Positions 3,079 to 50,610 of a stretch of 64,000 nt of DNA are shown in pieces. The position numbers and the translations under genes are program-made. Every line of letters begins with the position of its first letter. The stretch's first letter is position 1. Below the pieces are notes generated by a model. The model was not told the origin of the DNA, did no database searches, and saw only the letters and a list, made by a program, of their open reading frames with translations. Source of the stretch: Marsupella aquatica (Eukaryota; Plantae; Marchantiophyta); NCBI GenBank assembly GCA_973895155.1, contig OZ316891.1, positions 8,309,875 to 8,373,874 on the forward strand. The letters run 5' to 3'.

Positions 3079-3696
3079 ATGGCACAGTATGAGACGAACA
3101 CCAACGTGGTGCAGAAACCCGGAATTGTCGAGAAGGTGAAGCTCAAGGCTGAGGGCCTGATGGACAAGGTAACGGGACATAGTCACACCGGCACCACGAC
3201 TGGTGTTGGAGGAGCAGGAACGACGACGCCTGGGTTGGGCGGAGCAGGATCGAACATGTCAGGCGGGGGTGCCGGTTATGGACACCAGCAGCCAGGCTAC
3301 GGAGAGTCGCAGCAGCTCGGGACCAACACCGGGTACGCGGAGCAGCAGCCCCATGGTCACCACAACCACGGCCTTGGAGGACAGCAACCAATGATGGGAA
3401 CCACCGATGCCGCCTATGGACAACCCCAACATCATAGCGTCGTGGACAAGGTGAAGGACGCCGTCGAGCCCGGTCGCCAATCTGATCATGTGGGTGCTGG
3501 ATACGGTACTGGCACTGGCACTGGCACTGGCCATCACACCGGAACTGGCACTGGCATTGGCACTGGCCATCATACCGGGACTGGCACAGCTTCGGGAACG
3601 ACAGGCATGTCTTTAACCGACAAGATCAAGAGCAAGCTACCAGGCCATCACACTACCGGTACTGGAGCTGGCTACGATAACCAGGGCAAATATTGA
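3079..3696 (+). CDS. DHN: Dehydrin (LEA group 2), Gly/Thr/His-rich, 205 aa
   Basis: K-segment-like motifs KPGIVEKVKLKAEG, HSVVDKVKDAVEPG and MSLTDKIKSKLPGHH; low-complexity GTGTG/GHHTG phi-like segments; hydrophilic, no Cys or Trp; good start context AACATGG. Confidence 0.9.
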   Translation: MAQYETNTNVVQKPGIVEKVKLKAEGLMDKVTGHSHTGTTTGVGGAGTTTPGLGGAGSNMSGGGAGYGHQQPGYGESQQLGTNTGYAEQQPHGHHNHGLGGQQPMMGTTDAAYGQPQHHSVVDKVKDAVEPGRQSDHVGAGYGTGTGTGTGHHTGTGTGIGTGHHTGTGTASGTTGMSLTDKIKSKLPGHHTTGTGAGYDNQGKY

Positions 3697-4285
3697 GCTG
3701 AGCAGGTCTTCGGAAGCCTTGACTGTGTGCGTTTGTGTCACATTGATCGAGAGTCGGCTCTAGCTAGCATCAGAAGTAGCTCGTTTCATAGATCTATCGC
3801 TAGACACTCGTCGAGTGTTAAGATCAATGACGAGTGGTCCATGCCACCATTACACTGACCTGGTGATGCATTGGAGCTTGGAGCTTGGATTATCAGTACC
3901 TAGCACCATCCTAGCATTGTCGCATTATCTAATGTGCAAGTTTGAAGATAGTTAAAATCCTTGCTGAATGGGTTGGTTTCCTCCCACGTAGGAAAGAAGG
4001 TTTCAAAGTAGGCAAATCTCTGCATGTGGAATCGAAGATGACAATAATTCTCCCACGCAGGATACCAGAAAAGTAGCCCAATGTAGGCGATATGAGCATT
4101 AGCTGAAACTAGTTGGTGTTATGAAATCGATCATGACAGTGGGCACTATGGTGCAAATGTAATCTTAACGTGTGAGTCTTTTTACTGTAAATTCCAATGA
4201 AATCGAATATGACAGAGGTACATGGTGGAGGAGGACCATTTGATTATAATGAAACTATCATTTGTATCATTGCTTGGGCTGTTTT

Positions 4286-4580
4286 GTCTCAGTTTGCAGA
4301 GTGTAGCATTGATTTCAAATCTTGAGACCATTTGATTATAGCTGTACATCTGGTTGACGGACAGCTTGGACTCCTTTGTCTCAGTTTGCACAGTGTAGCA
4401 TTGAGACCATTTGATTATAGCTGTACATCTGGTTGACCGACAACTTGGACTCCTCTGTCTTAGTTTGCACAGTGTAGCATTGATTTCAAATTTGAGACCA
4501 TTTGATTATAGCTGCACATCTGAAGTGTAGCATTGCTTTGAATACTTTGAGAGAACGACCAATGAATTGTAGCCGTATAT
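4286..4580. repeat. Tandem repeat of ~80-95 bp units inside repeat copy 1
   Basis: AGTGTAGCATTG...GAGACCATTTGATTATAGCTG(T/C)ACATCTG recurs 3-4 times; fewer units at the matching place in copy 2. Confidence 0.8.
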
Positions 4581-5041
4581 CTGGTTTAACTCTTGCATGT
4601 TGATTGACATTTTAGTCATGCGCAAGTCTGGTTGTGCAGATTAAAACAATTAGAAATTGAAATCAAGAATTTTTGTATCATCTGCATGTACAATACCAAC
4701 ATAAATTCACTGCACTAACATTTTCCATGAATTGAAACCGAAAGATTTAGCCAAAACGAAAATGGAGTGATGGAGTGATAGTGCGAAAGAGGTGGCCAAA
4801 ACCATGAATTGAAACCGAAAAAGTTAGCCAAAACCATCAATTGTAACCTATTCGGATGATTATGCTTCGGATGATTATGCTTCTTCTCTTGATTCAAATG
4901 CAATATTAAATTACCACCTGAAGAAGTTCGAAAGTAGAAAAAGTAAAAATTTGGAAAATTCTGTCATCCCCTGGAACAATGATGTCTACAACGTCCGAAA
5001 ACTAAAATACATCATGTCTGTAGAAGAATTTGGTAATAAAT

Positions 5042-5137
5042 GCGATTAATCCAGCATCTCATAGTCCAAGCAATGCGAGTGAAAAGGAGCGATTAATCCA
5101 GCATCTCATAGTCCAAGCAATGCGAGTGAAAAGGAGC
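5042..5137. repeat. Perfect ~47 bp tandem duplication
   Basis: GCGATTAATCCAGCATCTCATAGTCCAAGCAATGCGAGTGAAAAGGA occurs twice. Confidence 0.9.
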
Positions 5138-6330
5138 TGAAGTTTCTGCAAACTTCTCGTTCTCAGTGTGTTAACTGATTGGTCTTCAACAGTTACTATT
5201 GACGAACATCCATATTTCGTGGATACATTGCGTATTGTGGTTCAAAATCTGAATCCAGTCCCTACCTTTGACTGACGGCCCCAAAACTCTACCTTGAATG
5301 CCATGTAAATTTCATCAACTATGGCTTCACCCTGAACGTTTCAGATTTCTTCTGAGTACCACACCCTTGATCCCCCCACACATTCTGACCCAACTCCGAA
5401 CGTCGCTCTCGACGATGGTTATTATCAGCCTCCACACACTTCTTGATGTACATTTGGAGTTTTTCCCAATCTCGTAGACTTAGTGACCAGGCCTTTGTCT
5501 TTAGCTGCCTTGGGACTTCATAACTTGGGTGTCAGGCCTGTAGCTCAGGGTTCATAAATGAAAATTCTGCTCCCTTAAGTGTTCAAGATTCAGTTCTTCA
5601 TAGTCAGAGACGTAAGAATTGAACAAGTAACTCAAGGTTTCCCTTGGATCTCATCTTAACGTCTAGGTGCAAAGCGTGTCACAGAATATTTCCTTAAAAG
5701 CCCAAAACAAATAATCATAGGAATTGTTGATCACATGCAGAAGAAACTCAAGATTTCCATTCTCTCCCAAAGCACATAACCAGCATGGATGCGCGATGCC
5801 AACAGTAACTGTTGCATTGCAAAACTTGGCTTCGAGTAACAACAATAAGAGTGAGAGAGAGTTTTCTGAAGTAGACCACTAAGAATGTCCACAGATTGTT
5901 ATGAATTCTATATACACCTTAAGTGGTAAGTTCATTGCTAGTGAGATGATTCACTTCCATTTGTTGTAATCTCACTTGGTCAACATTTGGTTGCATGGGC
6001 AAGACCATAGATGTTGACTGGATAGTTTGTTAAATTGAGCATATCAAATGTCCGCCTTTGAGGGGTGAAAGAGTCTGCGAGGGCCATAGACCAAAAGTCT
6101 CTTGCTCCACCAAAAATCCAGCTGGTTAGTCCCAACAACGTTTTCTTAAATGTTCACATCCTCCAAAACCCAAATACCCTCCTAGTTCACCATATAGTCC
6201 TCTAGCTTCGAAATGTTTTTAGAGCTAAGAACATCGCTGGGTCCAACCATGAATGATTGTTGTCATATGAACAATGTAGTTGCTACCTATGATTCCGAAT
6301 GTTCTGATCCAAATTATTTGATCTCTTCAG

Positions 6331-6847
6331 GTGGAAGTGCCTATTCATGAAGTTCATGGGCTTCCAAACTATCCTCTTGATTTGGAGAGACGCTGCTTGG
6401 ATGTGAAGGAGAGGCTTGCTGGTGGAGCTCTTCTTGGAATTTTGGCATGGGTGGGATTGACAAGACCACTCTTGCAATGCAAGCATTTAACATTCTTTCC
6501 AAAGACTTTGAATAATAAACTTTGTGGATAATGTAAAAGGCATCCCATTACACGAATTGCAGGATCGGGTTCTCAATCACTTTTATCACAATGGGAAGAA
6601 ACCAGATAAAGGTGTAATTGAGTGGCAGCATTTGCAGAGCAAGAAAGCTTTAATTGCCATGGATGACGTAGATGCGCAGGATCAGCTCATCATTCTACCA
6701 AGATTGGAGCACAGGTTGAGAGAAGCACAAGCCATAACTGCGGAGAAACGGGACAGGGTCAGGGCTTCCTTGAGGATAAGCTATGATGCCCAGTTACCAG
6801 AGGAACAGGGGATCGATGTTCATCGAGGCTGCGTCGATTTTCTTTGA
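6331..6847 (+). pseudogene. Degenerate NB-ARC (NLR resistance-gene) fragment
   Basis: Frameshifted pieces give a P-loop GMGGIDKTTLA (6444-6476, canonical G replaced by D, stop at 6513), kinase-2 KKALIAMDDVDAQDQL and a LRISYDAQLPEEQ segment resembling the region before RNBS-D. The GLPL region appears deleted. Possible splice acceptor TTCAG at 6326-6330. Confidence 0.8.
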
Positions 6848-7177
6848 ACAGCCATTGGAGCCAGTCTAATGCAGTTCAACCCATCTTCTTCGCAACGGCC
6901 CAAAGCATTCCCGTATATCATCTGTCTTGTATTCGTGCATTGAAAACCCCGGAGGTTGCCATTGCTGGAGGGGCCTTCGGGAGCTCCACCTGGGACCTGC
7001 GTCGAGCCATTCACCTTTATTGAGAAGTTGAAGGGATCCGAAATATCTGGAATGTTAGCAAGGTAAGGAAATAGATTTGGAAGGAATGGAATCCAATGCA
7101 CGAAAGGGAAGCTGTGTGGTATAAATTCAAACTGCCAAATCTTACTGTAAAAGCGCAAACTCAAGCCTACTATTAAA

Positions 7178-7515
7178 GGCCTAGGTCTAGAGTGAAGACT
7201 CTAGACCTTAACTCTTTACCAATAGAGACAAAAATTGATCTGTTTACCTTACTATAAAAATAAAAGTGCCAACTGAAATCTACTTTTAAAGGCCTAGGTG
7301 TAAAGTGAAGACTCTAGACTTACTATAAAAGTGTCAATGCTTTTAAAGGCTTAGGTCTAGAGTGAAGACTCTAGACAATAACTCCCAGGTCTAGAGTGAA
7401 GACTGTAGACTTACTATCAAAGTGCCAACTCTATAGTAGATTTACTATGATATGAAAAGTGTCAATTGAAGTCTATTTTTAAGGGCCTAGGTCTAGAGCG
7501 AAGACTCTAGACTGC
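7178..7515. repeat. Array of five short hairpin units, GTCTAGAGT-GAAG-ACTCTAGAC
   Basis: Copies start at ~7183, 7296, 7353, 7387 and 7489; 9-11 bp stem with GAAG loop; related spacers (TTACTATAAAAGTG(C/T)CAA). Confidence 0.85.
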
Positions 7516-7629
7516 AACTCCCAATAGAGAACAATGATCTTGAAATTCAATAAGGTCAAAATTTTAAACAAGGATGAACAAAAATAACATTAACTCTAAA
7601 AAGACAACTAAAAAGCGCAGGAAGACAAG

Positions 7630-7720
7630 ATCCCTCAGGCGGCAAAAGACCCAATCAAAAGGGGTAACCAAATCATCCCTCAGGCAAAAGACCCAATGAA
7701 AGGGGGACAACCAAAGGACC
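7630..7720. repeat. Two copies of a dispersed A-rich repeat (GGCAAAAGACCCAAT..AAGGGG), possibly a retroelement end
   Basis: Similar segments at ~24941, ~41872 and ~42165, and inverted at ~63810. Confidence 0.55.
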
Positions 7721-8192
7721 TAGAAAGGCCATGAGTCCATGACGCAAAGAAAGTCGTTCACGTATGACGTATGACGAGGTCTCACTTGGTCGCACCCTAC
7801 AGTCGTGTACCTACCAACGGTGTTCCCAAAATCTTGCAGAAGGCGCAGCGAGCCTACCAAAACATCTACTGTACAGTTAGTAGGAGCCCCGCACTTCAAG
7901 ACTCTCGGCCGTATCTCACAACCTTCACGTGAATTTATAAGCTCGCTGATTTTCGCATCTCAGAAAGCTTCACTTGGAATTCGCATCCCAGTAGCTTCAG
8001 AAAAACTCTCTCTTCAGGGGGGTGTGTCTCTCATGCTCGACGAAAACGGTCACCTTCCTTGTGTCATCTCACCAGCCTTCATCGCAGAGAATTCTCTCCG
8101 GTCGTTCTTTCCTCCTCACAAAAAACTGGAATGCTGGTTGTATGCTATAGCTCACCAATCTCACGTCCTTAGATCAGCTTCACCAACCCACA

Positions 8193-9437
8193 ATGGCCTC
8201 GCCAATCTACCCACTCCCACCAGGCGTCTACGCCGTCCCCTCTCACCTCCTTGATCTGCGGGCGGATTCTGAAGTGGATTATGACCTCCTTCATCCCAAG
8301 CCCGTGTCCGATGAGAAGAACATTTGGTTCTTCTGGCACTCTGGCTACACGCAGATGCACCCCTACACGAAGAGAAATATTAGAGCATGGCATCGGCGCA
8401 TCTCCAAGCAAGGGTGGACGATTCGCGTCCTCGACCGCCTCTCCTCCTCGCCCCTGAACGTCGCAAACTTCCTTGACATCTCTGACCCGGGCACTTTTCC
8501 CGTTGCGTTCGTGGATGGGACCATCGGCGGTGACTACGCGCCCCAGCATACCTCCGACCTCGTCCGGTTTCCACTTCTGCTCAAGTACGGGGGTGTGTAC
8601 GCCGATGTAGGGTTGATGCAAATCGGCGACTTGAATCGACTATGGAGCGAGACTGTTGGCAACCCTGCCTCGCGGTTCGATGTCCTCACTTACAACGCTG
8701 GCGGCGTCGAGGTGCGCAGTCTGACGAACTACTTCCTTTGCTCTGGACGGAACAATCCGTTCTTTGCACGCTGTCACAAGCTTCTGCTGGAGTTGTGGGC
8801 CGCCGACGGCGGCAAGACGAGCACTGACGGAATGCACAGCAGTCCATTGCTAACGGGGGTTGAGCTGTTGGGGGAAGGATTATATACAATTGAGGAGGGC
8901 GAGAAGAAGATTGGGCCGGAAGAAGTCAGTAGGATGTTAACGGATTACATTATTCAGGCTCAGGTGATGACGCTTGTCATGGGTCTCATCGATGAAGAAG
9001 ATGGCTGGGACGGACCAAAGTATGTCGCAGAGCACTTGTACGCCATCGAGTACATGGTGGGCTCGCAGCTCATTAACCAGATGACTGAATGGGACGGGAA
9101 GAAGGCCTTCACTCTAATGTCGCTTCCGCTTCCGAAAGAAGGTGAAGTGGAGACCGCAGAGCAGAAACAGGCCAGGGAGATCGTCGAGGAATGCTTGCAA
9201 AAGAGCTTCGGATTTAAGCTCGCTCATGGGCTGATTCTGAGAGTCTTCGGAGACACCTTGGGGTCGCTGTGGAGGAAGCATGAGGGCTCGGATAATGTAC
9301 CAGGGACCTACGCGCATTATTTGAGGCACGGGACAACGTATTGGAATCAGGACGGTGTTCCACCTGGGCTGGAATTCAAGGTTATCGAGCCGATTAAGAG
9401 GGGCCCGTTGTTGAGGTCCACGCCATCATTACACTGA
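8193..9437 (+). CDS. Fungal-type 'capsule polysaccharide synthesis' (Caps_synth/GT32-like, DxD-type) glycosyltransferase, 414 aa, intronless; probable HGT
   Basis: Uninterrupted 414-codon ORF. Motifs KNIWFFWHSG, RNIRAWHRR, HTSDLVRFPLLLKYGGVYADVG and LTNYFL match my recollection of ascomycete Caps_synth proteins. No signal peptide or TM segment is evident, and it is GC-richer than its flanks. Confidence 0.85.
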   Translation: MASPIYPLPPGVYAVPSHLLDLRADSEVDYDLLHPKPVSDEKNIWFFWHSGYTQMHPYTKRNIRAWHRRISKQGWTIRVLDRLSSSPLNVANFLDISDPGTFPVAFVDGTIGGDYAPQHTSDLVRFPLLLKYGGVYADVGLMQIGDLNRLWSETVGNPASRFDVLTYNAGGVEVRSLTNYFLCSGRNNPFFARCHKLLLELWAADGGKTSTDGMHSSPLLTGVELLGEGLYTIEEGEKKIGPEEVSRMLTDYIIQAQVMTLVMGLIDEEDGWDGPKYVAEHLYAIEYMVGSQLINQMTEWDGKKAFTLMSLPLPKEGEVETAEQKQAREIVEECLQKSFGFKLAHGLILRVFGDTLGSLWRKHEGSDNVPGTYAHYLRHGTTYWNQDGVPPGLEFKVIEPIKRGPLLRSTPSLH

Positions 9438-11250
9438 TCTGGTGATGCATTGGAGCTTGGAGCTTGGATTACCAGTACCTAGCACCATCCTAGCATTGTC
9501 GCATTATCTAATGTGCAATTTGACGATAGTTAAAATCCTTGTTGAATGAGTTGGTTTCCTCCCACGTAGGAAAGAAGGTTTTCAAAGTAGGCAAACCTCT
9601 GCGTGTGAAATCGAAGATGACAATAATTCTCCCACGTAGGAAAGCAGAAAAGTAGCCCAATCTAGACGATATGATCATGAGCTGCCTGAAAGGAATCTAG
9701 TTGGAGTTATGAAATTGATCACCACAGTGGGCACAATTGTGCAAAAGTAGTCTTGTCGTGTGAGTTTTGTTACTGTAAATTTGCAATGAATTCGAACATG
9801 ACAGTGAGGTACACGGTGACGGACGACCATTTCATTGTAAAGGAATTGGAGTTATGAAATTGATCACGACAGTGGGCACAATTGTGCAAAAGTAGTCTTG
9901 ACGTGTGAGTTTTGTTTACTGTAAATTTGCAATGAACTCGAACATGACAGTGAGGTACATGGTGAAGGACGACCATCTGATTGTGAAGGAATGAGTTTCA
10001 GTTGTATCATTGCTTGGATTGCTTTGTCTCAGTTTGCAGAATGTAGCATTGATTTAAGTTTTTAGAGAACAACTGATTATAGCTGTCCGTCTGTTTGACG
10101 AAAAACCGGAATGTAGTATTGATTTGAGTACTTTGAGAGAATGATTAACTGATCGTAGCTGTACATCTGGTTGGTTGACAATCAACTCGAACTTCTCTCA
10201 TATTAATGGGATGTTGTCATGCGGAAGGAAATTTACACAAACTTCTTTCGTTGTGGAGAATGAAATCTAGAAGTTTTGCATCATTATATGCACAATACTA
10301 ACAATTTCCTGAAAATGGAGTGAGTGCGAAAGAGTATGATGATGATGATGACTATGTTACTTCTACTGTGCATGACAGATTGCGGATTTGGAACACTCTT
10401 GATTCAAATGCAATATTGAGTTACCACTGTGTGACAAGCAAACAATTTGTTCGATTTTGTTACCACTGAATTCTGTCCCCATCCACTCCGAACAATAATT
10501 TCTACAAAGTTCGAAAGTTAGCCAGCAAAATAGTTTTAACACTTCGGAAACCAAAATACAAATAGTCTGTAGGAAAATTTGGAAGCAAACGCGATTAATC
10601 CAGCATTTCAGAGTCCAAATTGTGGAATTTTGCACCCATACAGTATTAGTTAAAAGAGCGGAAGTTTCTGATATTTCCTCGTTTATATTCCGACTTGTGG
10701 AATTTTCACCCTTACTGTAAGAGTGAAAAGAGCGGCAATTTCTGGTAACTCCTCGTTCTCAGTGTGTAAAACCAACTGTTCGTCAACAGTTGCAATTGAC
10801 GAACATCCATATTTCGTGCATCCACCGCGCAATGTTGATTTAAGATCGGAATCCAACCCCTACCTTTGACTGAAGACCCCAACATGCTACCGTTAATGCC
10901 ATGAAGTTTTCATCAAGAACTATGGCTTCACCCTGAACCTTTCAAATTTCTTCTAACTACCACACCCTTGATCCTCCACAGATCCTAACCCAACCCCGAA
11001 CGTCGCTCTCGACGATGATTATTACCAGCCTCCACGCACTTCTTGATATGCATTTGGAGCTTTTCCCAATCTCGTAGGCTTAGTTACCAGGCCTTTGCCT
11101 TCAGCTGCCTTGGGACTTCGTAACTTGGGTGTCGGGCCTGCGGCTCAGGATTCATAAATGAAAGTTCTGCTCCCTGAAGTGTTCAAGATTCAGTTTTTCA
11201 TCGTCACAGGTGTGAGAATTAAATAAGTAACTCAAGGTTTCCCTTGGATC
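9415..11250 (+). repeat. Segmental direct repeat, copy 2 (~1.8 kb); overlaps the last codons of the glycosyltransferase
   Basis: Homologous to 3836-5650; contains its own ~145 bp internal tandem duplication (~9701-9992). Confidence 0.95.
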
Positions 11251-11934
11251 CCAAGACTTGAGAGGCCGCGATTTCCTCGGAATGCTAATGGCAGGGGAAA
11301 CATGCGAATGTGAAATCCTCTTTCATCCACAAACGTCGTCAAGTGACTTAGAGACCAGGTTGGAACATTTAGACCACTTGACGGATGCTCAGAGACTGCA
11401 GGTCCAACAAGAGAATCAAAAGGTAATTAAGAAATTGGGCTTGATGAACCAATTCTTTAAGGTTCTTACAATGAGTAAGACAGCTGTCCAGTGAGCCAAA
11501 ATACAACTTTCAGATGCGGAGGAGCTTCTACATAAGACTGTGTTTTCTAAATCTGAACACAGGAAAGCATTCTCACTCCAAGTGTCACAAGCATCGAACC
11601 TAAAAGCCATTCTGGTCCCCAAAGAATGCTTATATAAATGATTAAACGAGAACAATGCAGAACACACCGAAGGCGAAACAATACTGTACGTGGCCGTGTT
11701 AGTGACCGGGAGAATGGATTTCAATATTTCAAATACGAAAAGCGGCATGAACCTGACAAACTTCGGTAGACATGAACTGTATAGAACTTCAGTGACACCA
11801 GATATGGACCGGTAACAGCAAAGAGAGGCTGAGATTTTCAACACCCTTCGCATCAGTAGTCCAATAGGTAGACACAGGCAAAGCTTGTGACTTTTACTAA
11901 ACTAAATGACTCAACTTTTACTAGAATAAATGAC

Positions 11935-15170
<3,236 letters not shown>

Positions 15171-15645: not shown

Positions 15646-18524
15646 TGTCGCACTACTGTACGTATGGAGAATTGATGATGTGGAGCGTTTGCCATTTTTG
15701 GCCAACATTAACTTTTAATTATATTGTCATTAAAGATATTTTAATTTATGATACTATTTTTTTAATTTATAAACATGTATATAGCTCTTGGTTACCTTGG
15801 TAAACTTATCATCCATATATAAAAGAGTGACATTTTTATAAATACTAAAAATAGTGGCAATATTACCAATTAGCATATCTTTAGTGACAAACTATTTAAA
15901 AACTGTTTATTTTGGCGCCCAGCACCTTAAGTAAGTGACATTCCTGGAAGGCTGGCTGGAAAAACCTGCTGGTCGTTTTGAGAAATTGAGAGGAAACTGA
16001 ATTTGAGGTGCAACAGCCTGAAATTTTGCTGAAATTTTGATATGCACAGAGTGCTCATGACTGGTTCAATTAACTCCCTCCAACCATACCTTCACCTTGG
16101 ACCAGGTTCTCCTATAAGACACTTCCAAGAAGCAAATGGTGACTACTATCTATAAGCAGAAACTGTTACCCGTTGGTCTCCCTCATTTCTCCCACTTTTA
16201 CAGTTGGAAGGAGTTAGCTTGGACAAATTATGGGCTTTCATGTGCCACCTCAGGTTAGTCAGCTTCACATACAAAACTGGAGGAAAACCTGACATTAAAT
16301 TTATTTTGGAGGAAGGATACCATTTTGACTATTTTGGGACAGGAAAATAAAAAACTATAATTCTATTATGTTTCAACTGCCAAATCCATTCTCTGCCAAA
16401 ATCCATTTCCACAGTAAGTTGTTGATTATCTCGGATCGGATGGATAATGGATTGTCACGTTTGACCTGAGGACTCCATTGACCGCCACCTGTTATGTTGA
16501 CACCAAAAATTGGGGAATATTTAATATGTAGAAACATGAAAGCTACACTCTGATACACACAAAAGTTTGACAAGCTGCTCTGATGGACCCATGCAACATA
16601 GATGAGGAGCAGTCGTATTTTTGGTATTTTCCAAATCCTTTCTCAAGTATCTTTCCATCAAGTTGATGTTCTCGGATACCATGGAGAATGCATTGTCACG
16701 TTTGTCCTGAGACTCAATAGACCACCCATTTTTTGACACCCAAAAACTTGAATATATGTATGTAATAAACCAGCCCCAATGACAAGGCAATTCACGCTTA
16801 GCAAGGGGATGCACAGATAGGAAGTGTGAGGCCAAGGCACAGGTGGAGAGGTGGAGGGCAGGCCGGGAAATGTTTCTTGGCTAATGAAAAAGCAAATGAC
16901 CAAGATTTCCACCCACCTGGATGACATTTTGTAAACAGACAATGGTCCAATTCTAGGCAGGGTCGGATATTACAGTGTTTGATGATTGTTAACTCTATCC
17001 AAACAATGGACTTTGATGGGATGCCAAAATACTATAGATACTATTAAACCTATCAGTAAACCTCCTTAACCTTGAAGACGCTAATATGCTTGATTTGGAA
17101 AAAAGGAAGCACCAAACCGGAAACCACACACCAAATTTCTTTAGTATGCAAAGATGCACAAAAATGGACCAAAAAACGTCTGACCTGATCAGATTTTACC
17201 CATTGGTTGTTTACTCGGGTCAAATGTTGAGTTTTTAGGCTTCAACTCCCTTGTTCCCCAGTCCTCCAGTTCTCCAGGTCCACAATGATTCTGCTCAGCA
17301 AGGTGTAACTAACAGCAAGAGGCTGACTGCTTAATTAAAGCACCACTGTTCCAAAGCAAAACCTGGTTGATCCAGGCTACTAAAATAAACCAAAAATGTG
17401 CTCAAAACAGCTAAAAAGTGCTCTATTTGTCCTCCCCGCACCTGGTGGACAGTGGTGGTTTAACAGAAGAAGACTCACTTGCATACCCATCTTCCTGTAT
17501 TTTCTGGCCATCAAGTAAGACTAGCCACTCTAGTGGAATCAGAAGTAACAATTCAGGGTGAAGACAGACTATGTCACTAGCTCCAGAGTGACATCTAATC
17601 CAATTAAAGCACAACTGCCCTTCAAAAGTTACGGGTTACCCGTAGTTACCATTAAAAGGAGATTTTTCCTGAAATTGTGGAGCAAACTAGCATGCTAGAG
17701 GAGAACACTGATTGAAATATGGAAAATGAGGGAGGTCTTGGACACTTCCCCTTATATAGGGGAAGTTGTGGTTTAACTTTCTGAGACTTTTTCTATGCTG
17801 GCTTTAAACTAGATCTCAGAGGGTAAAGAGTTTAATTTAATTAGTAATCTGTTTGAGTCCAAATAAATTGCTTGGTGAGTGAAACATTGCCTTTGTGGTT
17901 CTAATGTTATTTTGCCAAAGGAAAAAACATTGCCTTGCTGATTCGAATGTTACGTTGCAAAATGAATGTTCTGGTTTCATGCAGCACAACAAACTTTTGT
18001 TTTGTGGTCATTACAGTAGGAGGCGACCAACCTTGTCAACTCTTAATATGGTCCATGGAAATTTTGGTCCCAGTCAAGGGCAAATGATGCAAACTTAAGG
18101 GGATTGTAGCAGAATTTCTTGCCCAATTAACTTGTCAAATCTGTCCCTCCAACAAGGGTCTATCAACCAGACCAGATGGTTCTCCTTGACATCCAGAAAT
18201 TCCTAAGGTGCCTATGTGTTTGTCAGGTGTGTATTGACAGAAACACCTCCCAACCCAAGCATTACCAGCTTCAGATGGATATCAAGAGAGATGTTGAAGG
18301 TCAACTTTTGGTGTTATAAACATTTCCAAATTAAACAAGAAGGTTTTCAATGAATGAAGGCATAAAGGGTATCACTGTCCATAGAGGTATAATGGTCCCT
18401 GTGCTCAGTTTATCCGGGGTTCGACTTCATGAGCCTTATATCAATATAAGGATATAAGCAGTTCAGAGTGTCCCTTATATCGAACAAAGTGGAAGCTTCA
18501 TCAACATCGTGCATCCATGCTATG

Positions 18525-18547
18525 AACCCTAAACCCTAAGCCCTAAA
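18525..18547. repeat. Short telomere-like (CCCTAAA)n / telo-box
   Basis: AACCCTAAACCCTAAGCCCTAAA. Confidence 0.6.
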
Positions 18548-21500
18548 GATATTTCCAAGCCACTCCTAATGAGCACAGAAAATACCAGGTTCAGTTGAAT
18601 GTCAAGAGAAATATTGGAGGTCAACTTTTGCTGTTGAGAGCTTTCAGAATCAAGAAGGGTGTCAATGAGTGGTGTAAAGGATGTGATGGTCCATGGGGGT
18701 ATGATAGGACTTCTCAAACCAGATCATTCTCGGACGTTTCTTGTGACCAAAATGTTGCAGGCTGGGTCATAGACCAGAAGTCTGTGGTTCTTGCAAAACG
18801 TGACCATCAGCAACTCATGCGGTCAGTGCACTGGTGTCCTCACCAAATTTTGTTCCATGTAATAACACTCAGCGACCTTCAAGAATCATCAGCACCCATT
18901 CCAAAATGATCAGCGCCAAGCTGATCCGTGAGAGCTTGTTAAAGTTGTTTCAAACCTGAGACCCTCTAGATGAAGTTTGCTCAAAAGTTTGGGTTTTGGT
19001 AGTGGACATAGATTTCTCAAATAGGGTGACTGAAAAAATAAAAAGGGAAACAGCAAGTTTGAGATACCCTAACCATTCATGGGCTCGGTCATCCGGCCCT
19101 CAACTTTGCCAGGGTCAATGACGTGGCAGCGACTGTCTCAGGTGTCCCTTGTAAACAAAGTGAAAGCTTCATATATTATACTGATTCATGCATTCGTGCA
19201 CTAAAACTTAAGCTTCACTAGGCTGTTGCCGAGAGGGTGATGGTAGCTGTGCTCCTTCTTCTGGATGGTAACACGAGGAATGCTTGACTCTATCCACCTC
19301 AGCTCGGCAAGAGTCTGGGGGACAGCACTTTAGGAGTTCCCGACCTCCAACATTCTCAAGAGTCTAGTGTATAGGTGTTCCATTCGAGCTGCAGGCTCTG
19401 AGAGTCTGTAAGGGTGTGAGATTTTGGAAATATCTGGTCTACAATATTTGTAAGAGCGTCCTCAGTTCTAGTTTGGGTGTAGTGACGAAATAAATCTCTC
19501 TCTTGGAGGCTAGTTCGAGTTTCAGGGCTGAATATTGAGGTAGTTTAGCGAGGGAGGAAATGAGTTGTGGAGCTGTCGACTTGGTCGGTTAGGTTACGTT
19601 TTGAGGAAGTTGAATGATCTTATTCCTGTGGATTTGAGGAATTATCGCCATACGGTGTTTCTCCCTTGATTTCTCTTCTTTACTGGGTCTCCTACCTTAG
19701 GGATCATGTCTCCCGGTTTGGCGTTCGACTGACTGACTGAGTTCTGAATTTCTGATGTCACTTCGAATAAAATATTGCAGATTGTTGTCGTCAGGTGTTT
19801 AATCTATTGCACTGTGTCCTGCAAGATATCTAGAGACCATGACTTATCTGGTCAGAGGTCAGAAATCTCTTCGGTAAACATGGACTATGTGATGCAGTTT
19901 ATTGGAAGTGAGCTGGTAGTTCGATTTCATTTGGACGGACTCACGAACCTGCAGCCCAAAGGAAGCTGATTTAATTGCCATTGCAGAACTTGGTGTGTTC
20001 TCGATCAGTATTGCAAGCGGTGAGAACAGAGTCCATGAAATTTCCCTGCACAGTTTGTCCGATTCGTTTTGTCACAACTTCGTCTAATCCTGACCCCTAT
20101 TCCTCCAAGAAAGTTCATTTGTCGAGTCTCTACTCTGTTTCGCTGCCTCTACTGGTTAGTGTATTTGATTCCTAGAATTCCAATCTTGAAAGAGCCATTG
20201 CGGCTAGGCAAACCAAGTTCTGTTAATCCTCTTTGCTTGTTTATTTCCTGTGATGTTGTCTTCCTGCTCACTTGGGAAGCAGCAGTCCTAGCACATAAAT
20301 TTACCGAAGGGCCCTTCTTCTTGGAGAAACCCTACTGAAGAACTGTGAAACAAAGTTGAATGAGGGTTCTAGGACCGACCAGATATAGAAGTTATCTGAA
20401 ACAGAAGTTGGAACACAAACGTATTGCAGTGTATTGCGTTGAATTGCGTTGAATTGCGTTGTTTTAAGATCCCTTTACATTTCCCGTAATTGTGATTATT
20501 GCAAAGGATCAGACGATCTTCGGGGAAGTAGTGGCTTATGTACAAACGCTAGTCTTGACTAAGGATTCGGAACAGTTAGGAACAGCCATGTTGTACTATT
20601 TATCAATTTACGAGCTCTAGAAAGCGATTAGAAAGTTATTTTGTTCTGAGACCCTATGTATTGGTGTCTAGGACGGGGTAGGAAAGTTCTACTTGCATCT
20701 TCTAACAAGACCGTTATCACGTGGAACCCTAGTTCAGGCTGAAGAGTCTCTTGCAAAAGTGCTCAACTGGTGGCGATGAATATACCGAAAGAGCGGTTAT
20801 CTGGAGAAAATTCGTAAGCCGCTTTTCTGCTTGACCTGCAAATCGAGCGATTGAAGTCTTGAATCAATCGCCGACATGAATCTACCGCTATCCTTCCTCC
20901 GCTCAAGTCTCTACGCTCTTCGCTACACATCCTATGAGTCAGGTTGCCAGTTCGGGATGAAAACTGGGATATTTTAGGACAGAGCACCTTTTGTTAAAAT
21001 TATTCTTCCTTTCAACGCAAGGGTAGTTTGAAAGTAGACTTACATTTGGCATGAGAGCCACAATCTTGATGTCTAATTGCAAACAGAAAGGAGTGGATCA
21101 CGAGCTTACTTCCCCACTGACTCAGAATGCTAGGCCATGCGTCCACATCTATAGCAATGTCGTCAACCCTATATGTGCTGGAAATTCTCGACACACGCAG
21201 AGACTGGCAGCACATGAAGGCAAACCCTGCTCAAAGAGAATATAATTGAACCATATGATTGATCAAGAGAGGAACGCAGTTTGACCAGCCATGCTTACAA
21301 TTCGGAATGCACTTCTGCTATTATTGTAGACCATTCTTGGGCAATGTGTCTCTAAGCTTTACTGGACGAAATCATAAACTAATTGAGACGGATGTTCACC
21401 TAAATGTGAGGCTCGTAAATGGTCACAGAACAGTCGAGCAAATTTCAGATCTGGGCGAAGTCCAATTCATCCTCGTTAGGCAATGTAACCTTCAAGTGGC

Positions 21501-22747
21501 CCGTGAACAGATTGTTATCCACATTAGCCTGAGCTCAGAAACAGAGCCTACGGCAGTCCGTCACGGAGGAGAAGCACAGAATAACGAAAAAGAATGAAAA
21601 GCTGAGGCTATGACAGTTCGAGCAGTCTTCAAAATGGACAACTATCCCAGCAAAATTACTCCCGGCGGCTGTGAAAATTGTTACAACTGCCTACCTTTGA
21701 TAAAGTGAAAGAAAACAAGTGGACTACACTTCTGTCCTAATTTCGAGGTGAGTCTTCAGAATAATGCAGGCGCCTGTATCAAGAAAGTTGTTCGTAAAGA
21801 ATATCGTGTGTTGCACAGTTCGAATCTACTGACATTCAGTTCCGTTATTGAGTCATTCCGAAATCAGTAGCCTACACGAGGATTAGTCGAGAATTCTTCC
21901 CTTTACTCGAGTTACAAAGAATGTACTCCTAGCGACCACCTTTACCTTGAATGATTGTATCCCTTCGGAAAGCTGACTATTGCTTGGCGGTCTCCGAGAT
22001 TGATTTGCATGGTGGCTCATCATCTTCGACTTGTTGTGAAGATTGATTGCTTATTTTCACGTTCCGGGTCTGACATGCACGAGACATGACTGACAAAATG
22101 TCGGTTCTGAGTTCTCACGATGCAATTGTTCAAAGTAACACAAAAAAAATGTCGGTTCATATCACTATTTGCTTCCCACCCAACCGTTTCACGTCAAGTA
22201 CATCTTTAATCCTTGCAAACTTAAACCTATAAAACGTATCAAGTCAACGGCAGAGCTCTCTAATGGAAACAGAACTGTTGATGTGAGAACAGAATTCCGC
22301 TCTAGTAAAGTCTTACGATTGTATCATTTGATTGGGGCTTTAGCTCATAATTGTGTACCGTGCGCTTGATTGGACTCCGGTCGAGAAACCCCCCGTGGCA
22401 TTCACCTCTCCCATCATTCCGATTCGAGCTATGATTCGAGTCAAACAAAGACGGAGACAAAACCTCTCAAATTACAACTGCATGACGTCTGTTTTCAGGA
22501 CGATGAAGAAAACCTGCGGAACACAGGTCTTTTGTCAAAGCTGAATGCAACGGTTACCGTACAAAGGCATACATTTGGTGATCACGAGGAAATGATCAGA
22601 CAGAGCGGACCGCCATATCCTGAGAACCAAATGTCCACGGCTTTCCTCACTTCCTAAATGTACGCTGGAATATGTTGCTGATATTTGGACAACTACTTTT
22701 TTGGTTGGGACAGTGGAGGGTAACCCATGCAGCCTGGGGGTAATCTG

Positions 22748-22933
22748 CAACTATAATAAGGGATCTCATTCCCTTATTTTTTGGCATCTTTCTTCCCAAC
22801 ATAAAAAAGTTCTTGGGCGGGAAAGATACACAATAGTTGGATTCCAACTATAATAAGGTATCTTCTTTTTTTTCATCCTTCATCCCAATATAAAAAAGTT
22901 ATTGGATGGGAAAAATCCACAGTAATTGGATTC
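22748..22933. repeat. Diverged two-copy tandem duplication, ~90-97 bp
   Basis: CAACTATAATAAGG...CCCAA(C/T)ATAAAAAAGTT...TTGGATTC occurs twice. Confidence 0.8.
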
Positions 22934-25016
22934 TATTAACTGTTTTCTGACCATTGACTGAAGAAATGTATGTGCACCCCTGGCACATATGTGCTTCTAG
23001 CTGCCCCATAAATGCCTCAGCCCTCCTTGCACAATGCAATGCACTCACATAGGGCTAGTGGGATCATGAAATACCCCAGCCTGAGGGGGTTGTAGCCCTG
23101 CACCCATGGTTCCCAAGTGACCATGGATTAACTAATGTTAACTCCCAATGTAATTTTACTCTATTTTGGCCTGAAAATTGTGCTTGAAAAACTGGATGAC
23201 CCTTAAACTACCACTGTCCGTACAAAATGAGAAGTGTCCAAAATTTTTCCCTTTTTCACATTCCTTTCCTCTAGGGTGAGACTTCGCTCCACAACTTGAA
23301 GAAAATGGTACTAAAAATGGTGAAATCTAGTGGGATCCAGATTTTGTCAAGGACACAAGCTAGCCACAAGGGGCAATCTCATTAGCCCAGGGCCAGGCTA
23401 GTATAGGGATTATGGTATAGAAATACAAAGAGAAAACTGAAGGAGCGGATTACAGAAATGGAGGTTCCTTTCTTATAACCCACCCAAGCACTGAACCGTA
23501 AACCTTGGTAGCAACGGTTTTTGTCCATACCCCCATCCATCCCACCCAAACTTAAAGCTCAGTTTTAAGCTACAGGAATATATATAAATTCATATGAGTA
23601 TTATATCTAATCGTAAAGGTTATGAAGCCTTTAGTATAATTGTGTAAAAGTTTAAGAAAACAATTACGGGAAGCTTCTTTACCAAGCATGAGTGGTGCCT
23701 GTTTGTAATTTTTAATGCACAAGACCTACTGGACAGCTCATGAGTGTTTTCGTGCTGTTTTTACGAAAAATAAAAAATAATCGATCAGCAAAGTTGCTTA
23801 ATTAACTAGGCAAGACCAGTGACACTAAATGAAGAAAGTAGCATGAACGAAAAGATTTGCATGAGAACATTTCTGGCAACCGTTTTGACATAAAAACATT
23901 TCCTTAAAAGTTCAAAAACAAGCACCAACACATACAGAGGTCATTAGTTCACGGACATGTATGTAAGCATGAAAAGTCTTTCTGAAAAGGTCTTTACCCT
24001 CAACATCCACACTCCAAATTATTTCAACTTTTCCAAAAACGTGCACTTGGAGTTTATGACTAGGTCTATTATTGACAACTCCAAATGAATATGGCTATTA
24101 TGATTACTCAGAGTTGATGAATAGGTCTATTATTGACAACTTACAGTGGTCAATCATGCCCCATATGATACAGTAGTTATGAGGGACTTTGTGCAAGTAA
24201 CTCAATTAACACAGAGAGATTGGTACACAGATGGCAGCCTGTCAATCTGGTGACAAAAAGATCAAACATTTTCTGCATTGAGACAAATTTGACACTTTGA
24301 GTCATTTCCTATGATGTCACTCCAAATAATAACGTCTGGGCTTGATGTTTGCAGAAGAAGGGACTCCAAGAAACCCCTTGCCAAAGTAGTAAGAAACTAG
24401 GGTCCAAAGCCATATGGTGTCCAGTTCAAGGATAGATAGACCTTGCACCAGTTAGTCTCTAACTAGTTCTTACAAAGGAATGAATAATACAACTTTAGTA
24501 GACAAGACCAAGTGCTAACCATTTTCTTATTAATCAACAAGACATAATTATGATGACCTTGGCTGGGGAGAGTTTATTTGTGGGTTTGATTTCCCTCTTA
24601 TGAATGGAAAAAAACCAATTGCTCACCATGTGGCTCCTCTATAGTAGTGGACATAAACTAATATAGAACTGGGTCATTAAGGGAAAGGTAAAAGACTCTT
24701 GATGAGTTTTGGGAGTTCTTTGTGACCAAAATTTTGCGTGAATATGTATGTTTCCTTAATGGGTGAGGTCATGGCACCCCTACCTATATTAATTTACCTT
24801 TAAAAAGTCACTAAAAGAAATTAAGGTGAGGGTATCAAGCCCAAGGAATTAAGAAAGGATGTTGAAACCAGAAACTCAAGGAGTAAAATCTATATCTGCC
24901 AAAAGAACAAAAGGCTTCTAAGGGTGGACATAATTCCAAAGGCAAGAGACCCAATAAAAGGAAGAAAGCAAGGAAAAAACTCAAGAAGACCAAAGACTCC
25001 AAAAGCCAACCAACTA

Positions 25017-25334
25017 GCTTGGGTCACTCAGTTGGCCAGGGGTTTAGCCTAGAACCGAGAGGTCCCAGGTTGAACCCTCTCCACATCCCTTGCGTGACTG
25101 TGGAGTGTATGTGTGTGAGTAGGGTGTATTGGTGGGAGTACTTGGTGGGAGTACTGCTTTCTCCTGAGCCCCTGGCTGGTTTAGAGCCCTGATTTAACCA
25201 TCTCTCCCTCCTGGTCCCAGTCGGATCCTGGGTATGACCCTGTTGTGCGCCCCCTACAGAGGCGCATGCTCCGGAGTAAATTGTCTATACTGTGATGCAT
25301 GGGTCTGCTTTTGGTTTCAAGGCAAATAAGAAAG
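25017..25334 (+). mobile_element. tRNA-derived SINE-like element
   Basis: A-box-like TCACTCAGTTGG (25024-25035) and B-box-like GGTTGAACCC (25068-25077) at tRNA-like spacing, followed by a GC-richer body and an A-rich end; boundaries approximate. Confidence 0.6.
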
Positions 25335-27503
25335 AGAGTCAAAAAGCCCCCGAGTCCTCAACAAGGACAAAACAACACAAGCCCTAATTAGCGCCAAACA
25401 GAAAAGTCTGGTAGAGCTCTCAAGTAAATTGCATAGGTAGGTCACTAAGAAGTAGTTGACTAGAGAAAAGATGTGAGCCGAAACTACAGTAGATGCTGAA
25501 GGCGATAGGGACGAACGAGGGACCACAACCCCAAAAAGAATCTGGAAGATTGCATCAACCTGAAAGGCCTGAAAAGATGGGACGTCCATTACAAGCCAAG
25601 TTGTTGCATACTACAACTTTTTTTTCCAGTTGGAAATCTCTTGACCAAACCTTTGTCCTGAAGCGAAGGGTACTTTTGAGAGGTTGGAAAATTTTCAAAC
25701 GACCAAGCATAATTTAATTATGTTCCCTCCTATTCTCTTCTCCACTCTCACTCTCTCTGTGTCCATGGATTCTATAACGGGCCCACGTGAACTAATCTAC
25801 CTACAGTCCAAGTTAGTCTGGAAAAAACGTCCTTTGCTCTTCTTCGTCATCCATGCTTCCACAGGTACAGTCACGCGACCAAAATTCTTCTATTTTGGAA
25901 CCGTTGGGAAAGTCCTCTGAGTGGGGACCAGTGTATTTTTTAAGAGTTGTGATGAGTGCACATCAAAAAGAAGTTTCATACCTAAAAGGAAAACACTAAG
26001 TGATATACAAAAAAACAAGGGGCTTATCATGGTATGGACAATCCTTTCAACCAATAGTACCTTGTCACGTAACATACTCTACTGTATGCTACTGCTTTTC
26101 AAAAAGAAATTGTCTTTTAATCAAAATTTCCATGTTACAGTAAGTTTTCAACATGCACCAGATTGTTTCTTACAACGACCTGTCACAGGTCGTTCATTGA
26201 CATTCTTCTCATTTCCCAAAAAAACTCCACAAGAAATTTTGGTCTGCATCTATCCGTGAAGGCAGTGACTGTTTTAGTTCATGTTTTACAAAAACTTTTC
26301 AATATAGAAACTGTAGGCAGACTTGCTTTAACCATGACGGCTGACTCTTCCTTGACATAAAGTGACACCACATGACAAAAGCAACATGAAAGAAAATATT
26401 TACATGTAATTTTTTTTGCAACCAAATCTTGGAACCCCTTTTTCTTTCCTCTCTTGTACTTTGTTTTTCCCGGATTTATAAAAAATTTGGTGAAAGTTCA
26501 CACTCTGCTTAGAAAAACAAAAACAAAATGTATGAAAGTATTTCATTTTTCAAAAGGAGCATCGACACATAGGAAAGATGATTTTAGACGGGATTTTACA
26601 GCTAGGTGTAGTTCATTAGAATCAAATCCTTGATATCCAAGATAAATGGCTATTCTTGGGCTCATTAGAAGCAGTTTTGAAAAGTTAGCTCACAAGTTTT
26701 TGAGCTGCTAACTATGACATTCAGCATCTCCCCCACACCTGATGGAATCTGATGTTTTCAGCCAGTTTGAAACGGCTTGGAATTATCTTTCAATCAGCCT
26801 GCTATTGTCAAATTTTAGTGAATTGAGAGACCTACAATTTTCAAAAAATAAAAATAATGTCATTTTCTTGCCAGATTTCAATCATCAGAATCCAACATGT
26901 ATTTTATGAGCAGAAAGTAGGGTTGCTGCATCCATCCGAGTTGAAAATGTCTATCCTGACGTCTAATTTGGCAACTGTGGAGGTCCATCTGGGATGTACA
27001 ATTATTGACTGATCTTTAATATGGACTGTTACATCTTGTCCAGTCAGATCTTGACCTTTAGATCTAGCAAAAAGAATCTAAGGGACTAAATTGCTCACAG
27101 AAATTCCTCTACTCTCTTCACAGGCCCTTATTTGCTCGCTTATTTGGCCAACATACTGGCAAAATATGCCAAAACTGTGACAGCTGGTGTGGACCTGTCC
27201 ACCAGGCCACCTTGCAAACATAGATATGGCAGTGGACTTTCGAAGGGAATTTCCATTAGAATGGGTCCCCTCAAATTCCTCTAAGTGGTTGCTTTAGAAG
27301 AGCTTCAGTGGCTACCCACAACATGCACCATGATTCCTTGATGTGGTGGTCCCTGTCATAATATTGTGGTTGCTTTATAAGGGCTTCACTATCTACCTCC
27401 AACCTCCACCATTCCTTCATATGGGAACAAATTGGCAAGAGAGAGAACTAAGGACAATAATGGAGTAGTGTTCATTCTCACTAATGACACTATCAATGAA
27501 TAG

Positions 27504-28100
27504 TTCGGGAGGGGTCTGGTTACATCTGTAGAATGAGACATCAAGTGCGACAAAGTATTGGGTCATTTTAATTATTTTGAGAAATATTTATAAAGATGCT
27601 AGTGAAAATACTCGGGGGGGTCACTATATGGAGGGTCATACATCGCGTGCGACGTTTTAGGGTTTGACCCCCCTAACTTTAAAGTGAAAAATATTTTTTT
27701 GCAAAGCCCTTTCTTTCTTAAAATTTTGTCATTTTTTATTAAAAAACCCCTAAAAACTTTATAGAAAATATTTTTTGCAATTAAATAGGCCTATGTGTTC
27801 TTTAAAGTCGACCAATCAATAAAACATGCCCTATGTGTTCTTCCACCAAACTTTGGAAGTCTTCCGCCACACCCATTTAAATGGGCCTATACTTTGTCGC
27901 ACGTGATGTGTCACTTCCGTGGAAGTGACCCCCCCGAGTGAAAATATAGGGTTTTCTCATGTAAAAATGTCACCTGTCATCATATCATTGGTGTCATACA
28001 ACTTTGTTTAAAGTGATTATGGGGTCATCAATATATAACTCGAACCGTCAAATATGATGTATGGTCCCAGTATGGCCCTCTATATAGTGACCACCCCAAG
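27504..28100. mobile_element. Older, diverged copy of the CTCGGGG-TIR MITE family, interrupted by a younger copy
   Basis: The left part (CATCAAGTGCGACAAAGTATTGGGTCATTTTA) and right end (TATGGCCCTCTATATAGTGACCACCCCAAG) match the reverse complement of the ends of 27611-27938. Confidence 0.6.
27611..27938. mobile_element. MITE with perfect 15 bp TIR and 8 bp TSD
   Basis: TIR CTCGGGGGGGTCACT / AGTGACCCCCCCGAG, extending imperfectly to ~45 bp; TSD TGAAAATA at 27603-27610 and 27939-27946. Confidence 0.9.
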
Positions 28101-30658: not shown

Positions 30659-30889
30659 ATAGATGACTGGTAAAGCCATTGATAGTCTGATTGTACCAAT
30701 TTAAGATTGGGAAATAGTTGGCCTTTTTCCTCCCAGTACATAGTCATGGTACTTGTATTTTTGGTCACTATCCATATAGATGACTGCTAAAGCCATTGAT
30801 AGTCTCATGTACCAATTTAAGATTGGGAAATAGTTGGCCTTTGTCCTCCCAATAGTCTCCAAGGTACTACTATTTTTGGTCTCTATCCA
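30659..30889. repeat. Two-copy tandem duplication, ~115 bp
   Basis: ATAGATGACTG(G/C)TAAAGCCATTGATAGTCT...TATTTTTGGTC(A/T)CTATCCAT occurs twice. Confidence 0.9.
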
Positions 30890-31069
30890 TTATTTAACCC
30901 TGGTTGAAACTGTTGCAGACCCAGTTCAAACTAATATATTTCCCTTCCTCTTAGTCCCCTTCAGTTGTACTTGTTAAACATCTACTCTTAGGTCTCTTTG
31001 CCCATTATCTACTTAGGGATTAATTGTAAGACATAAAGGAAGCCATGGCAGATTTGTATTCATGAGCTC

Positions 31070-31367
31070 CTGGGGGTTTCATTTCCCAAAAAATGGCATA
31101 TCACGTGTGACGAAGTATAGGGTCATTTTATTGGTTTGAAGGGATGACTTAAGAATTTTTTGAGAAGAACACTAGGGTCTTTTAAATCCAATTTTGAGAC
31201 TTATAAGAACATTAGGGTCCTTATAACCAAAATTTTGGAATATTCCAAGAATATTCCAACAACTTATAGGGGTTGAAAAAAATAAAAAATTTCTTACATT
31301 TTAGGGGGTCCGAGGCCTAAAAACGTCGCAGGTGATGGGGAGGCATCCATGTAGTGAGACCCCCGAG
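31070..31367. mobile_element. MITE of the same family as 27611-27938
   Basis: TIR CTGGGGGTTTCATT / AGTGAGACCCCCGAG; TSD ATGAGCTC at 31062-31069 and 31368-31375; shared subterminal ATCACGTGTGACGAAGTATAGGGTCATTTT. Confidence 0.85.
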
Positions 31368-46162: not shown

Positions 46163-46517
46163 GTTGTCTTGCATGTAATCTGCCCTCAATGTTGCGGCCC
46201 TCAATTTTTGCGGCCCTCAATTATCCGAAACTGCTCAAGGAGTGCACCTCAACACATTATGGTTCTGCCACGTGTCACTTGGCCAGGTGCCTGGAATGGA
46301 ATGTGTGAAAGTGAGTAATTTGTTTTATTCAAGTGTTACAGGTCGGGGCCTCAAGAGGTTTGGGAAAGTTTTAGGCCTTTGCTCTCCAAGTCTCGACATG
46401 AACTGCCGTGGAGCCTGGATAATGAAGGGGTCCAGGCATGAAATTCTCTATGTATGATAGAATGTACACATGCAGTTGAGGCCCACAAAACTGAGATCCC
46501 ACTTAATGCAAGACAAC
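46163..46517. mobile_element. MITE-like element with imperfect ~45 bp TIR
   Basis: Termini GTTGTCTTGCAT / ATGCAAGACAAC; flanking direct repeat TCTAAAT at 46156-46162 and 46518-46524. Confidence 0.75.
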
Positions 46518-50487: not shown

Positions 50488-50610
50488 CTCAAGTTAGCTC
50501 TCACAAGCCATTGCATGCCTTTCTATCTTTACCAGCATAGGTGGACGTCGTCGAGTCACAAATCAGGAACGTCCAGGAGGCATCGTAAACTGTGCATTCC
50601 CTTCCCCTCC

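Follow-up and report, generated by a model that had tools for sequence, protein, structure and literature searches.

How did an intact gene of fungal type come to lie between two genes of a liverwort, and what might its protein do there? The question is raised by an open reading frame (ORF) at 8193-9437(+) in 64,000 nucleotides of Marsupella aquatica DNA (assembly GCA_973895155.1, contig OZ316891.1, positions 8,309,875 to 8,373,874 of the forward strand), a stretch that we refer to as a whole as the window. Its 414 codons run without an internal stop or an intron, as an initial annotation had reported from the letters alone, and they align collinearly over their full length with intronless fungal genes. 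That annotation proposed a fungus-to-plant transfer, and the identity of the named matches, the position in the tree and a diverged host duplicate at the junction agree with it: we regard a real, integrated transfer as nearly certain, and a fairly recent date for it as likely. On this account an intronless fungal glycosyltransferase gene would have been acquired horizontally by a leafy liverwort from an ascomycete.

A protein search with the window ORF returned 831 matches, of which the best 120 were examined; 25 of these carry an organism name (95 do not), and all 25 are fungi (22 ascomycetes and 3 basidiomycetes), with no Calypogeia, Marchantia, Riccia or moss name among them. Sphaerobolus and Piloderma are the best named matches in this set, at 84% identity, and the best match without a name reaches 87%. 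With a distant family member as query, 34 of 66 matches were named and again all were fungi; the protein-cluster names of relatives are exclusively fungal, and the Atlas clusters are mostly Ascomycota. The synonymous divergence from the nearest fungal locus (dS 0.78) is not saturated. The GC content of the ORF is 0.55 as compared to 0.38-0.45 in the non-coding flanks (1-kb windows), an excess to which the initial annotation had drawn attention, although the dehydrin-like ORF to the left reaches 0.59 and GC alone is not diagnostic of a foreign origin; three host ORFs have GC values of 0.47-0.60 at third codon positions, and the window ORF has 0.68.

Maximum-likelihood trees (FastTree with 135 rows; IQ-TREE with 41 rows, its bootstrap not fully settled) nest the window gene among fungal sequences. 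It groups with two nameless proteins (P0002 and P0004, support 99/96) inside a 20-row clade (support 97/94), in which the rows that carry a name are six Leotiomycetes and two Lecanoromycetes. The sequence relationships thus point to an ascomycete, without a species name, as the likely donor; the affiliation with ascomycetes given earlier fits this tree, mostly of Leotiomycetes, and does not fit the best named matches, which are basidiomycetes. A basidiomycete donor, as those top matches would suggest, is disfavoured by the position of Sphaerobolus and Piloderma outside the 20-row clade, the approximately unbiased (AU) test not having been applied to it. Hyaloscypha hepaticicola, a liverwort associate (PMC6976342, PMC7062687), has a homologue, but this is not the sister of the window gene in the best tree.

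Side by side with these results we note that the basidiomycete copies cluster with ascomycete copies on very short branches (P0005, P0007 and P0089 as compared to P0019, P0146 and P0153), and that the 5' untranslated region (UTR) can be aligned across distant fungal copies (L001, L002 and L005); the gene therefore likely moves between fungal phyla. The neighbours of the fungal loci include TPR-rich genes resembling nucleotide-binding leucine-rich repeat (NLR) genes, and HET genes.

The anatomy of the locus (Table 1) shows how the foreign DNA is joined to that of the host. Fungal DNA homology begins at 8102 by blastn or at 8051 by local alignment and ends at 9416, and outside this tract comparison with the fungal loci reveals neither a further fungal gene nor fungal flanking DNA in the window. 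Within the 5' UTR there is a relic in-frame ATG at 8142, followed by a stop two codons later. At the 3' junction the fungal DNA overlaps by two nucleotides (GG) with copy A' of a 1.8-kb host segment, and because this copy starts inside the ORF the window protein ends in LLRSTPSLH instead of the LLREK of the fungal proteins. The two copies, A and A', differ at 110 of 941 columns and by 10 indels in their two longest aligned blocks, a divergence of about 12%, and between them lies an insert (5654-9414) that carries the glycosyltransferase gene, an NLR fragment and repeats. Reading the flanking duplicate as a long terminal repeat or a target-site duplication was rejected, since the segment continues into ordinary dehydrin-downstream DNA, in a relative too. 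Rather, an ancestral order of dehydrin, A and SRPK would have become dehydrin, A, insert, A' and SRPK by a break repair that duplicated the host segment and joined the ends through the two-nucleotide overlap.

Table 1. Features of the locus and of the wider window (window coordinates)
Feature	Position	Strand	Basis or remark
Dehydrin-like host gene, left neighbour	3079-3696	+	K-segment-like repeats, by eye
Host segment copy A, downstream of dehydrin	3836-5653		Duplicated at 9415-11253
Decayed NB-ARC (NLR)-like fragment	~6240-6850	+	P-loop-like and kinase-2-like motifs, interrupted by stops and shifts of frame (by eye)
Short host repeat array (families D4, D8)	7136-7520		Summed contig depth 1,200-6,100 in runs X2/X3
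Multi-copy host segment with putative promoter	7660-8010	+	Contig depth; air-run contig homology ends at 8010
Fungal-derived 5' UTR	8051-8192	+	Fungal loci L002, L011, L023 from 8102-8110 (blastn); L002 from 8051 (local alignment)
Fungal-derived coding region, GT-A glycosyltransferase, PF05704 and PF04488	8193-9416	+	DNA and protein homology
Host-derived last codons and stop	9415-9437	+	End of fungal homology (9416) overlaps start of copy A' (9415)
Host segment copy A'	9415-11253		Supplies stop and likely 3' UTR
SRPK-type kinase, spliced host gene, right neighbour	11935-15161	-	Pfam Pkinase; GT/AG exon ends
GT47/MUR3-like host gene	37375-38925	-	75-76% to Calypogeia fissa proteins, 52% to Marchantia

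The stop of the gene comes from A', and transcription would probably start from a host-derived promoter at about 7750-7940. The multi-copy segment upstream holds ACGT cores at 7760 and 7767, a G-box at 7926 and a TATA-like box at 7934; these motifs were chosen with the sequence already in view and carry little weight, three ACGT cores being found in 6 of 1,276 overlapping 200-nt windows. The repeat array further upstream, present at high copy number in host runs, is likely transposon-derived, and the longest ORF of the NB-ARC-like fragment gave no match in a Pfam scan.

Whether the junction belongs to the plant or to the assembly can be weighed with the help of independent sequencing runs, nine of which, from four studies, contain part of 7600-9800; five were compared (X2, X3, X5, X6 and X7). 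In X3 (study P2) the ORF lies in a single contig (8190-9427) with 26 differences from the window, and this contig extends 11-12 letters into host DNA past the 3' junction before it meets two different host continuations. In one of these a 177-nt deletion removes the present stop and, as followed by hand, makes the frame about 15 codons longer. In X5 (study P3) the stretch 8052-8848 shows 33 differences in 782 positions, near the values of its host neighbours (23/515 and 55/1210) and at similar depth; in non-coding DNA the alleles are about 4.5% apart.

An assembly chimera with the DNA of a fungal endophyte is, in our estimation, highly improbable. Leafy liverworts often host ascomycetes (PMC7062687), the identity to fungi is high, and in the 57% of X2 that was read most of the ORF is covered thinly or not at all. 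Such a chimera would nevertheless have to place its junction inside the ORF and at the start of a host duplicate, and two copies diverged by about 12% are not what an assembly error would produce. The same junction letters moreover recur in X3, from another study, with two derived host continuations, the alleles diverge like host DNA, and nothing fungal beyond the UTR accompanies the gene.

Several observations nonetheless speak against an integrated gene of ascomycete origin and deserve to be stated together. None of the contigs listed extends at least 31 letters beyond the 3' junction in both directions, a point that the chimera would also explain, and none carries the gene together with a host exon; the short-side overlaps at this junction in X3 are 11-12 and 16-17 letters, and the X5 pieces end at 9411 and resume at 9424. 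As to origin, 711 of the 831 protein matches lie outside those listed and 95 of the others are nameless, so that plant members are possible elsewhere, and a tree that constrains the window gene to Hyaloscypha is not rejected (p-AU 0.139).

We observed further that in X3 two 5' flanks and two 3' flanks (depth 33-41 each) meet one ORF sequence (8190-9427, depth 77), and that one set of flanks matches the window exactly, in spite of the 26 differences within the ORF. Gene conversion across the ORF in a hybrid or polyploid may account for this pattern.

When did the gene arrive? The locus in its present form would have arisen well before the sampled alleles split, because the duplicated copies are 12% apart as compared to about 4.5% between alleles in non-coding DNA. 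Two runs from air, X6 and X7, add another layer: they contain an intact copy (window 8166-9410) that is 94.5-97% identical to the window and has kept its fungal end, together with a 3' UTR of fungal type; its 5' flank, from 8166, resembles neither the window nor the fungal loci. Both runs also hold a broken sister copy with the same 5' flank, which has a 155-nt deletion and is cut at 8587. The air copy may be carried by a liverwort related to the host or by a fungus close to the one from which the gene came. X6 has, in addition, liverwort-like dehydrin-flank and SRPK pieces at a similar depth of about 10.

These air copies are the main argument for an older and wider transfer, across several leafy liverworts, in which the window locus would be a later relocation of a copy already in plants. 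To this we give about an even chance: the copy with its fungal end and different flank, its broken sister and the liverwort-like pieces at matching depth speak for it, whereas the carrier could be a fungus close to the donor, and the named matches, as above, include no liverwort or moss. This history is compatible with the transfer that we favour, and would alter its date and breadth alone.

Whether the transferred gene still matters to its host is a separate question, and we think that it has very probably been kept as a selected protein. Between the window and X3 the 26 differences are 14 synonymous and 12 non-synonymous, giving a ratio of non-synonymous to synonymous rates (dN/dS) of 0.26 (p = 0.001 against neutrality), and close fungal pairs give 0.24-0.34. 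Of the differences confined to the air copies, at least 13 in number, those listed are 8 synonymous and 5 non-synonymous. If the A/A' divergence is taken as a neutral clock, the frame should have collected about 5.2 frameshifts and 3.2 stops after the duplication, yet it has neither (P ~2e-4). The CpG content of the ORF is not depleted (0.93), and 1 of 16 window-derived changes falls at a CpG. The purifying selection earlier proposed from a frame that stayed open while the NLR fragment decayed is thereby given numbers, with the reservation that one lineage is near neutral.

That lineage, together with the broken copies, is the basis for an alternative in which the transfer is real and the gene, by now silent or almost neutral, is being lost, the signal of selection dating from an earlier phase. 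On the window side the changes are 11 synonymous and 5 non-synonymous; on the X3/X5 side ten changes are 3 synonymous and 7 non-synonymous, so that the signal stems from the window side, a circumstance that weakens the case for a selected protein. The same must be said of the open-frame test, which presupposes neutral evolution of the duplicated host segment, of an X5 contig that departs from the gene at 8848 into at least 255 unrelated letters (possibly an insertion in one copy), and of the broken copies in X5, X6 and X7 as a group, by which the gene may be dispensable. Some allelic changes, moreover, hit residues that are conserved in close relatives (I70, T166, E224 and I401), and one X3 allele has the altered C-terminal tail described above. 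Decay without function nevertheless appears quite unlikely to us, given the overall departure from neutrality, a frame that stayed open against some eight expected disabling changes, the retention of W48, D122, R125, D138, D251, Y252 and K342, and the lack of CpG decay.

If a selected protein it is, what does it do? The translation scores above the curated cut-offs of two Pfam families, Caps_synth (PF05704; E 2.8e-13, 50.4 bits against a cut-off of 24.5) and Gly_transf_sug (PF04488; E 2e-5, 25.6 bits against 23), and an AlphaFold2 model (pLDDT 96.7, 104 sequences) is a soluble globule with a GT-A fold, in keeping with the Caps_synth/GT32-like assignment of the initial annotation. The motifs quoted there, NIWFFWHSG and RAWHRR, are present, and its view that no signal peptide or transmembrane helix is evident agrees with the hydropathy: the peak 19-residue value is 1.43 and that of the N-terminus 0.64, with no membrane- or signal-like segment. 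Its DxD label does not survive, as the metal-motif position reads D138-V-G and the window protein has no canonical DxD. None of the 96 relatives counted has Asp at the third position of the motif either: all 65 close ones carry Gly there, and all 31 distant ones Gly or Ser. The family falls into two tiers, close members at 60-87% and distant ones near 30% identity, and the window protein retains the residues invariant across it (W48, D122, R125, G133, G134, D138, D251, Y252, K342 and R378).

A single-sequence search of the PDB with the window protein gave no match, and a profile search gave weak motif matches. By structure the top matches of the model are Och1, YGT and YeGT (Z 12.8-13.2, root-mean-square deviation 3.6-4.1 over 193-216 residues, 11-14% identity), with Och1 at Z 13.2, 4.1 and 216 residues. 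GT32 and GT44 relatives are retaining enzymes, and Och1 is a Golgi membrane protein. This raises the alternative of an expressed enzyme whose acceptor is a glycan, lipid or protein, as in Och1/GT32- or GT44-like enzymes. The nearest solved folds, Och1 and protein-modifying glycosyltransferase domains, with Z 12-13 and a local motif match, would suit it, as would Pfam names that point to polysaccharide synthesis and close fungal relatives that lie outside biosynthetic clusters, two of them beside rhamnogalacturonan lyase-like genes. We hold it to be unlikely, in that these folds share 11-16% identity with the window protein, as compared to 30% over the full length to a CtyD-like protein; the window protein has no membrane anchor or signal-like segment, and fusions with tailoring enzymes occur in its family. 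The GT32 Och1 and GT44-type domains also differ from the window protein in their canonical DxD, and they act on glycans or proteins.

The CtyD-like protein, P0561 of Talaromyces verruculosus, has 118 identities in 393 residues (30%, E 3e-53) to the window protein, and its start, read by eye, agrees with that of the CtyD gene printed in the supplement to PMC11622859. CtyD, of the cotylenin pathway, is described there as a Mg2+-dependent GT-A diterpene glucosyltransferase assayed with UDP-glucose, and PaGT (Pa-orf6) as the diterpene O-glucosyltransferase of the fusicoccin pathway (PMC11622859). The window protein resembles them in Pfam family, length, GT-A fold and the motifs W-H-x-G, D-L-x-R, D-V-G, D-Y and K-L-x-H-G. 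It differs in belonging to another subfamily and in its plant setting, and the genes of CtyD and PaGT lie in terpene clusters whereas its own close relatives do not. Distant members of the family are fusions with squalene/phytoene synthase, methyltransferase and sulfotransferase domains (P0425, P0533 and P0488). AfumC, BraB and FCK3 presumably belong to PF05704 as well. They are reported as fungal small-molecule glycosyltransferases, AfumC for fumihopaside, BraB as a brasilane N-acetylglucosamine transferase and FCK3 in a Fusarium cytokinin cluster (PMC11051388, PMC8403587, PMC9861600, PMC12667342). One 74% match of the window protein bears the name "putative glycosyl transferase FCK3" and one 77-79% match the name "O-glycosyltransferase", both by automatic name transfer.

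These relationships lead us to predict, as rather probable, a stand-alone enzyme of the cytosol that transfers the sugar of a UDP-sugar to hydroxyl groups of hydrophobic small molecules and serves their solubilisation or detoxification, and if the protein is indeed selected, a small-molecule O-glycosyltransferase is what we would expect with good confidence. The reaction would be metal-dependent and of GT-A type, with UDP-glucose the most likely donor, as for CtyD, and probably retaining. The acceptor might be a terpenoid or a similar metabolite of the plant or of its fungal colonists. Some findings pull the other way: the CtyD-like and Fusarium proteins fall in other clades, with Shimodaira-Hasegawa (SH) support of 0.95-0.998 for the stem of the window subfamily, and that subfamily is without a characterised member. 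No terpene synthase, polyketide synthase or nonribosomal peptide synthetase was found among 109 neighbour ORFs (at least 110 aa) of 18 of the 26 fungal loci, which yielded one cytochrome P450, and the close relatives therefore do not look like pathway genes; nor did the ORF list and a Pfam scan reveal a secondary-metabolite cluster in the 64-kb window. Because enzymes of the AfumC, PaGT and FCK3 type appear to be relatives at about 30% in other subfamilies, their substrates cannot be transferred to the window protein, so that of the link to small-molecule glycosyltransferases drawn earlier the homology stands and the shared subfamily does not.

The surroundings of the locus are those of a plant chromosome. 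The kinase on the right, whose exons are also found in X2, X3 and X5, is the spliced SRPK gene that the initial annotation had named, whereas the dehydrin on the left was recognised by eye alone, a Pfam scan of its ORF giving no family. Further along, the similarity of the GT47/MUR3-like gene would place the host among leafy liverworts; this gene is intronless, and its subfamily has at least six clusters in Calypogeia fissa. Long stretches at 16000-33000 and 42000-54000 are depleted in CpG (observed/expected often 0.2-0.4), and ratios of 0.9-1.1 are seen around 8-10 kb, 14-16 kb and 38-40 kb, a contrast that suggests methylated and unmethylated domains. Short tandem duplications of 100-300 nt with 78-88% identity occur at 47121-47628, 50610-51063, 30659-30890 and 62000-62892.

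Taken as a whole, we speculate that a leafy liverwort recently took up a gene which already hops from one fungal phylum to another, that this gene was fitted with a stress-type promoter and a stop of the host, and that it provides the plant with a chemistry that glycosylates terpenoids or detoxifies antifungal compounds, through a GT-A family not reported in plants and unrelated to the usual plant UDP-glycosyltransferases (UGTs); with so many parts the proposal is a tentative one, and we would not expect every part to hold. Glycosylation of small molecules in plants is normally the work of UGTs of the GT-B fold. If the proposal is true, the liverwort, rich in terpenoids, would have in this functional fungal GT-A enzyme of CtyD/PaGT type a second, borrowed route of glycosylation, and the intact, broken and relocated copies in living relatives would make the whole path of domestication traceable. 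The locus also permits direct testing of how a foreign gene acquires a promoter and a terminator in a plant, and its enzyme represents an unstudied and widespread fungal subfamily.

With regard to known systems, the nearest are the genes of an uncharacterised stand-alone PF05704 subfamily from fungi of soil, roots and lichens (Cenococcum, Amorphotheca, Hyaloscypha, Xylographa, Piloderma and Sphaerobolus), which share with the window gene 73-87% identity, the lack of introns and a homologous 5' UTR, and from which it differs in its host-derived C-terminal tail, stop and upstream region and in its plant chromosomal context. Our literature search, with most subscription papers outside it, found no report of this family in a plant. 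The main texts of PMC12513842 and PMC12890914 do not mention a glycosyltransferase, and the horizontal-transfer tables of PMC12513842 may already list this transfer. Fungus-to-bryophyte transfer as an event is already known and common in bryophytes, being described as continuous and including RDS1, YANB, EUPF, a fruit-body lectin, microbial terpene synthases and GH88 (PMC12513842, PMC12890914); what sets the present case apart is the gene family and the readable junction. Like those cases, the window locus holds a fungal gene kept in a liverwort and related to metabolism or defence. Unlike them, it involves another gene family, and where most of the published transfers consulted are old or only listed, this one is recent enough that the fungal UTR, the junction, a datable duplication and several alleles can still be read.
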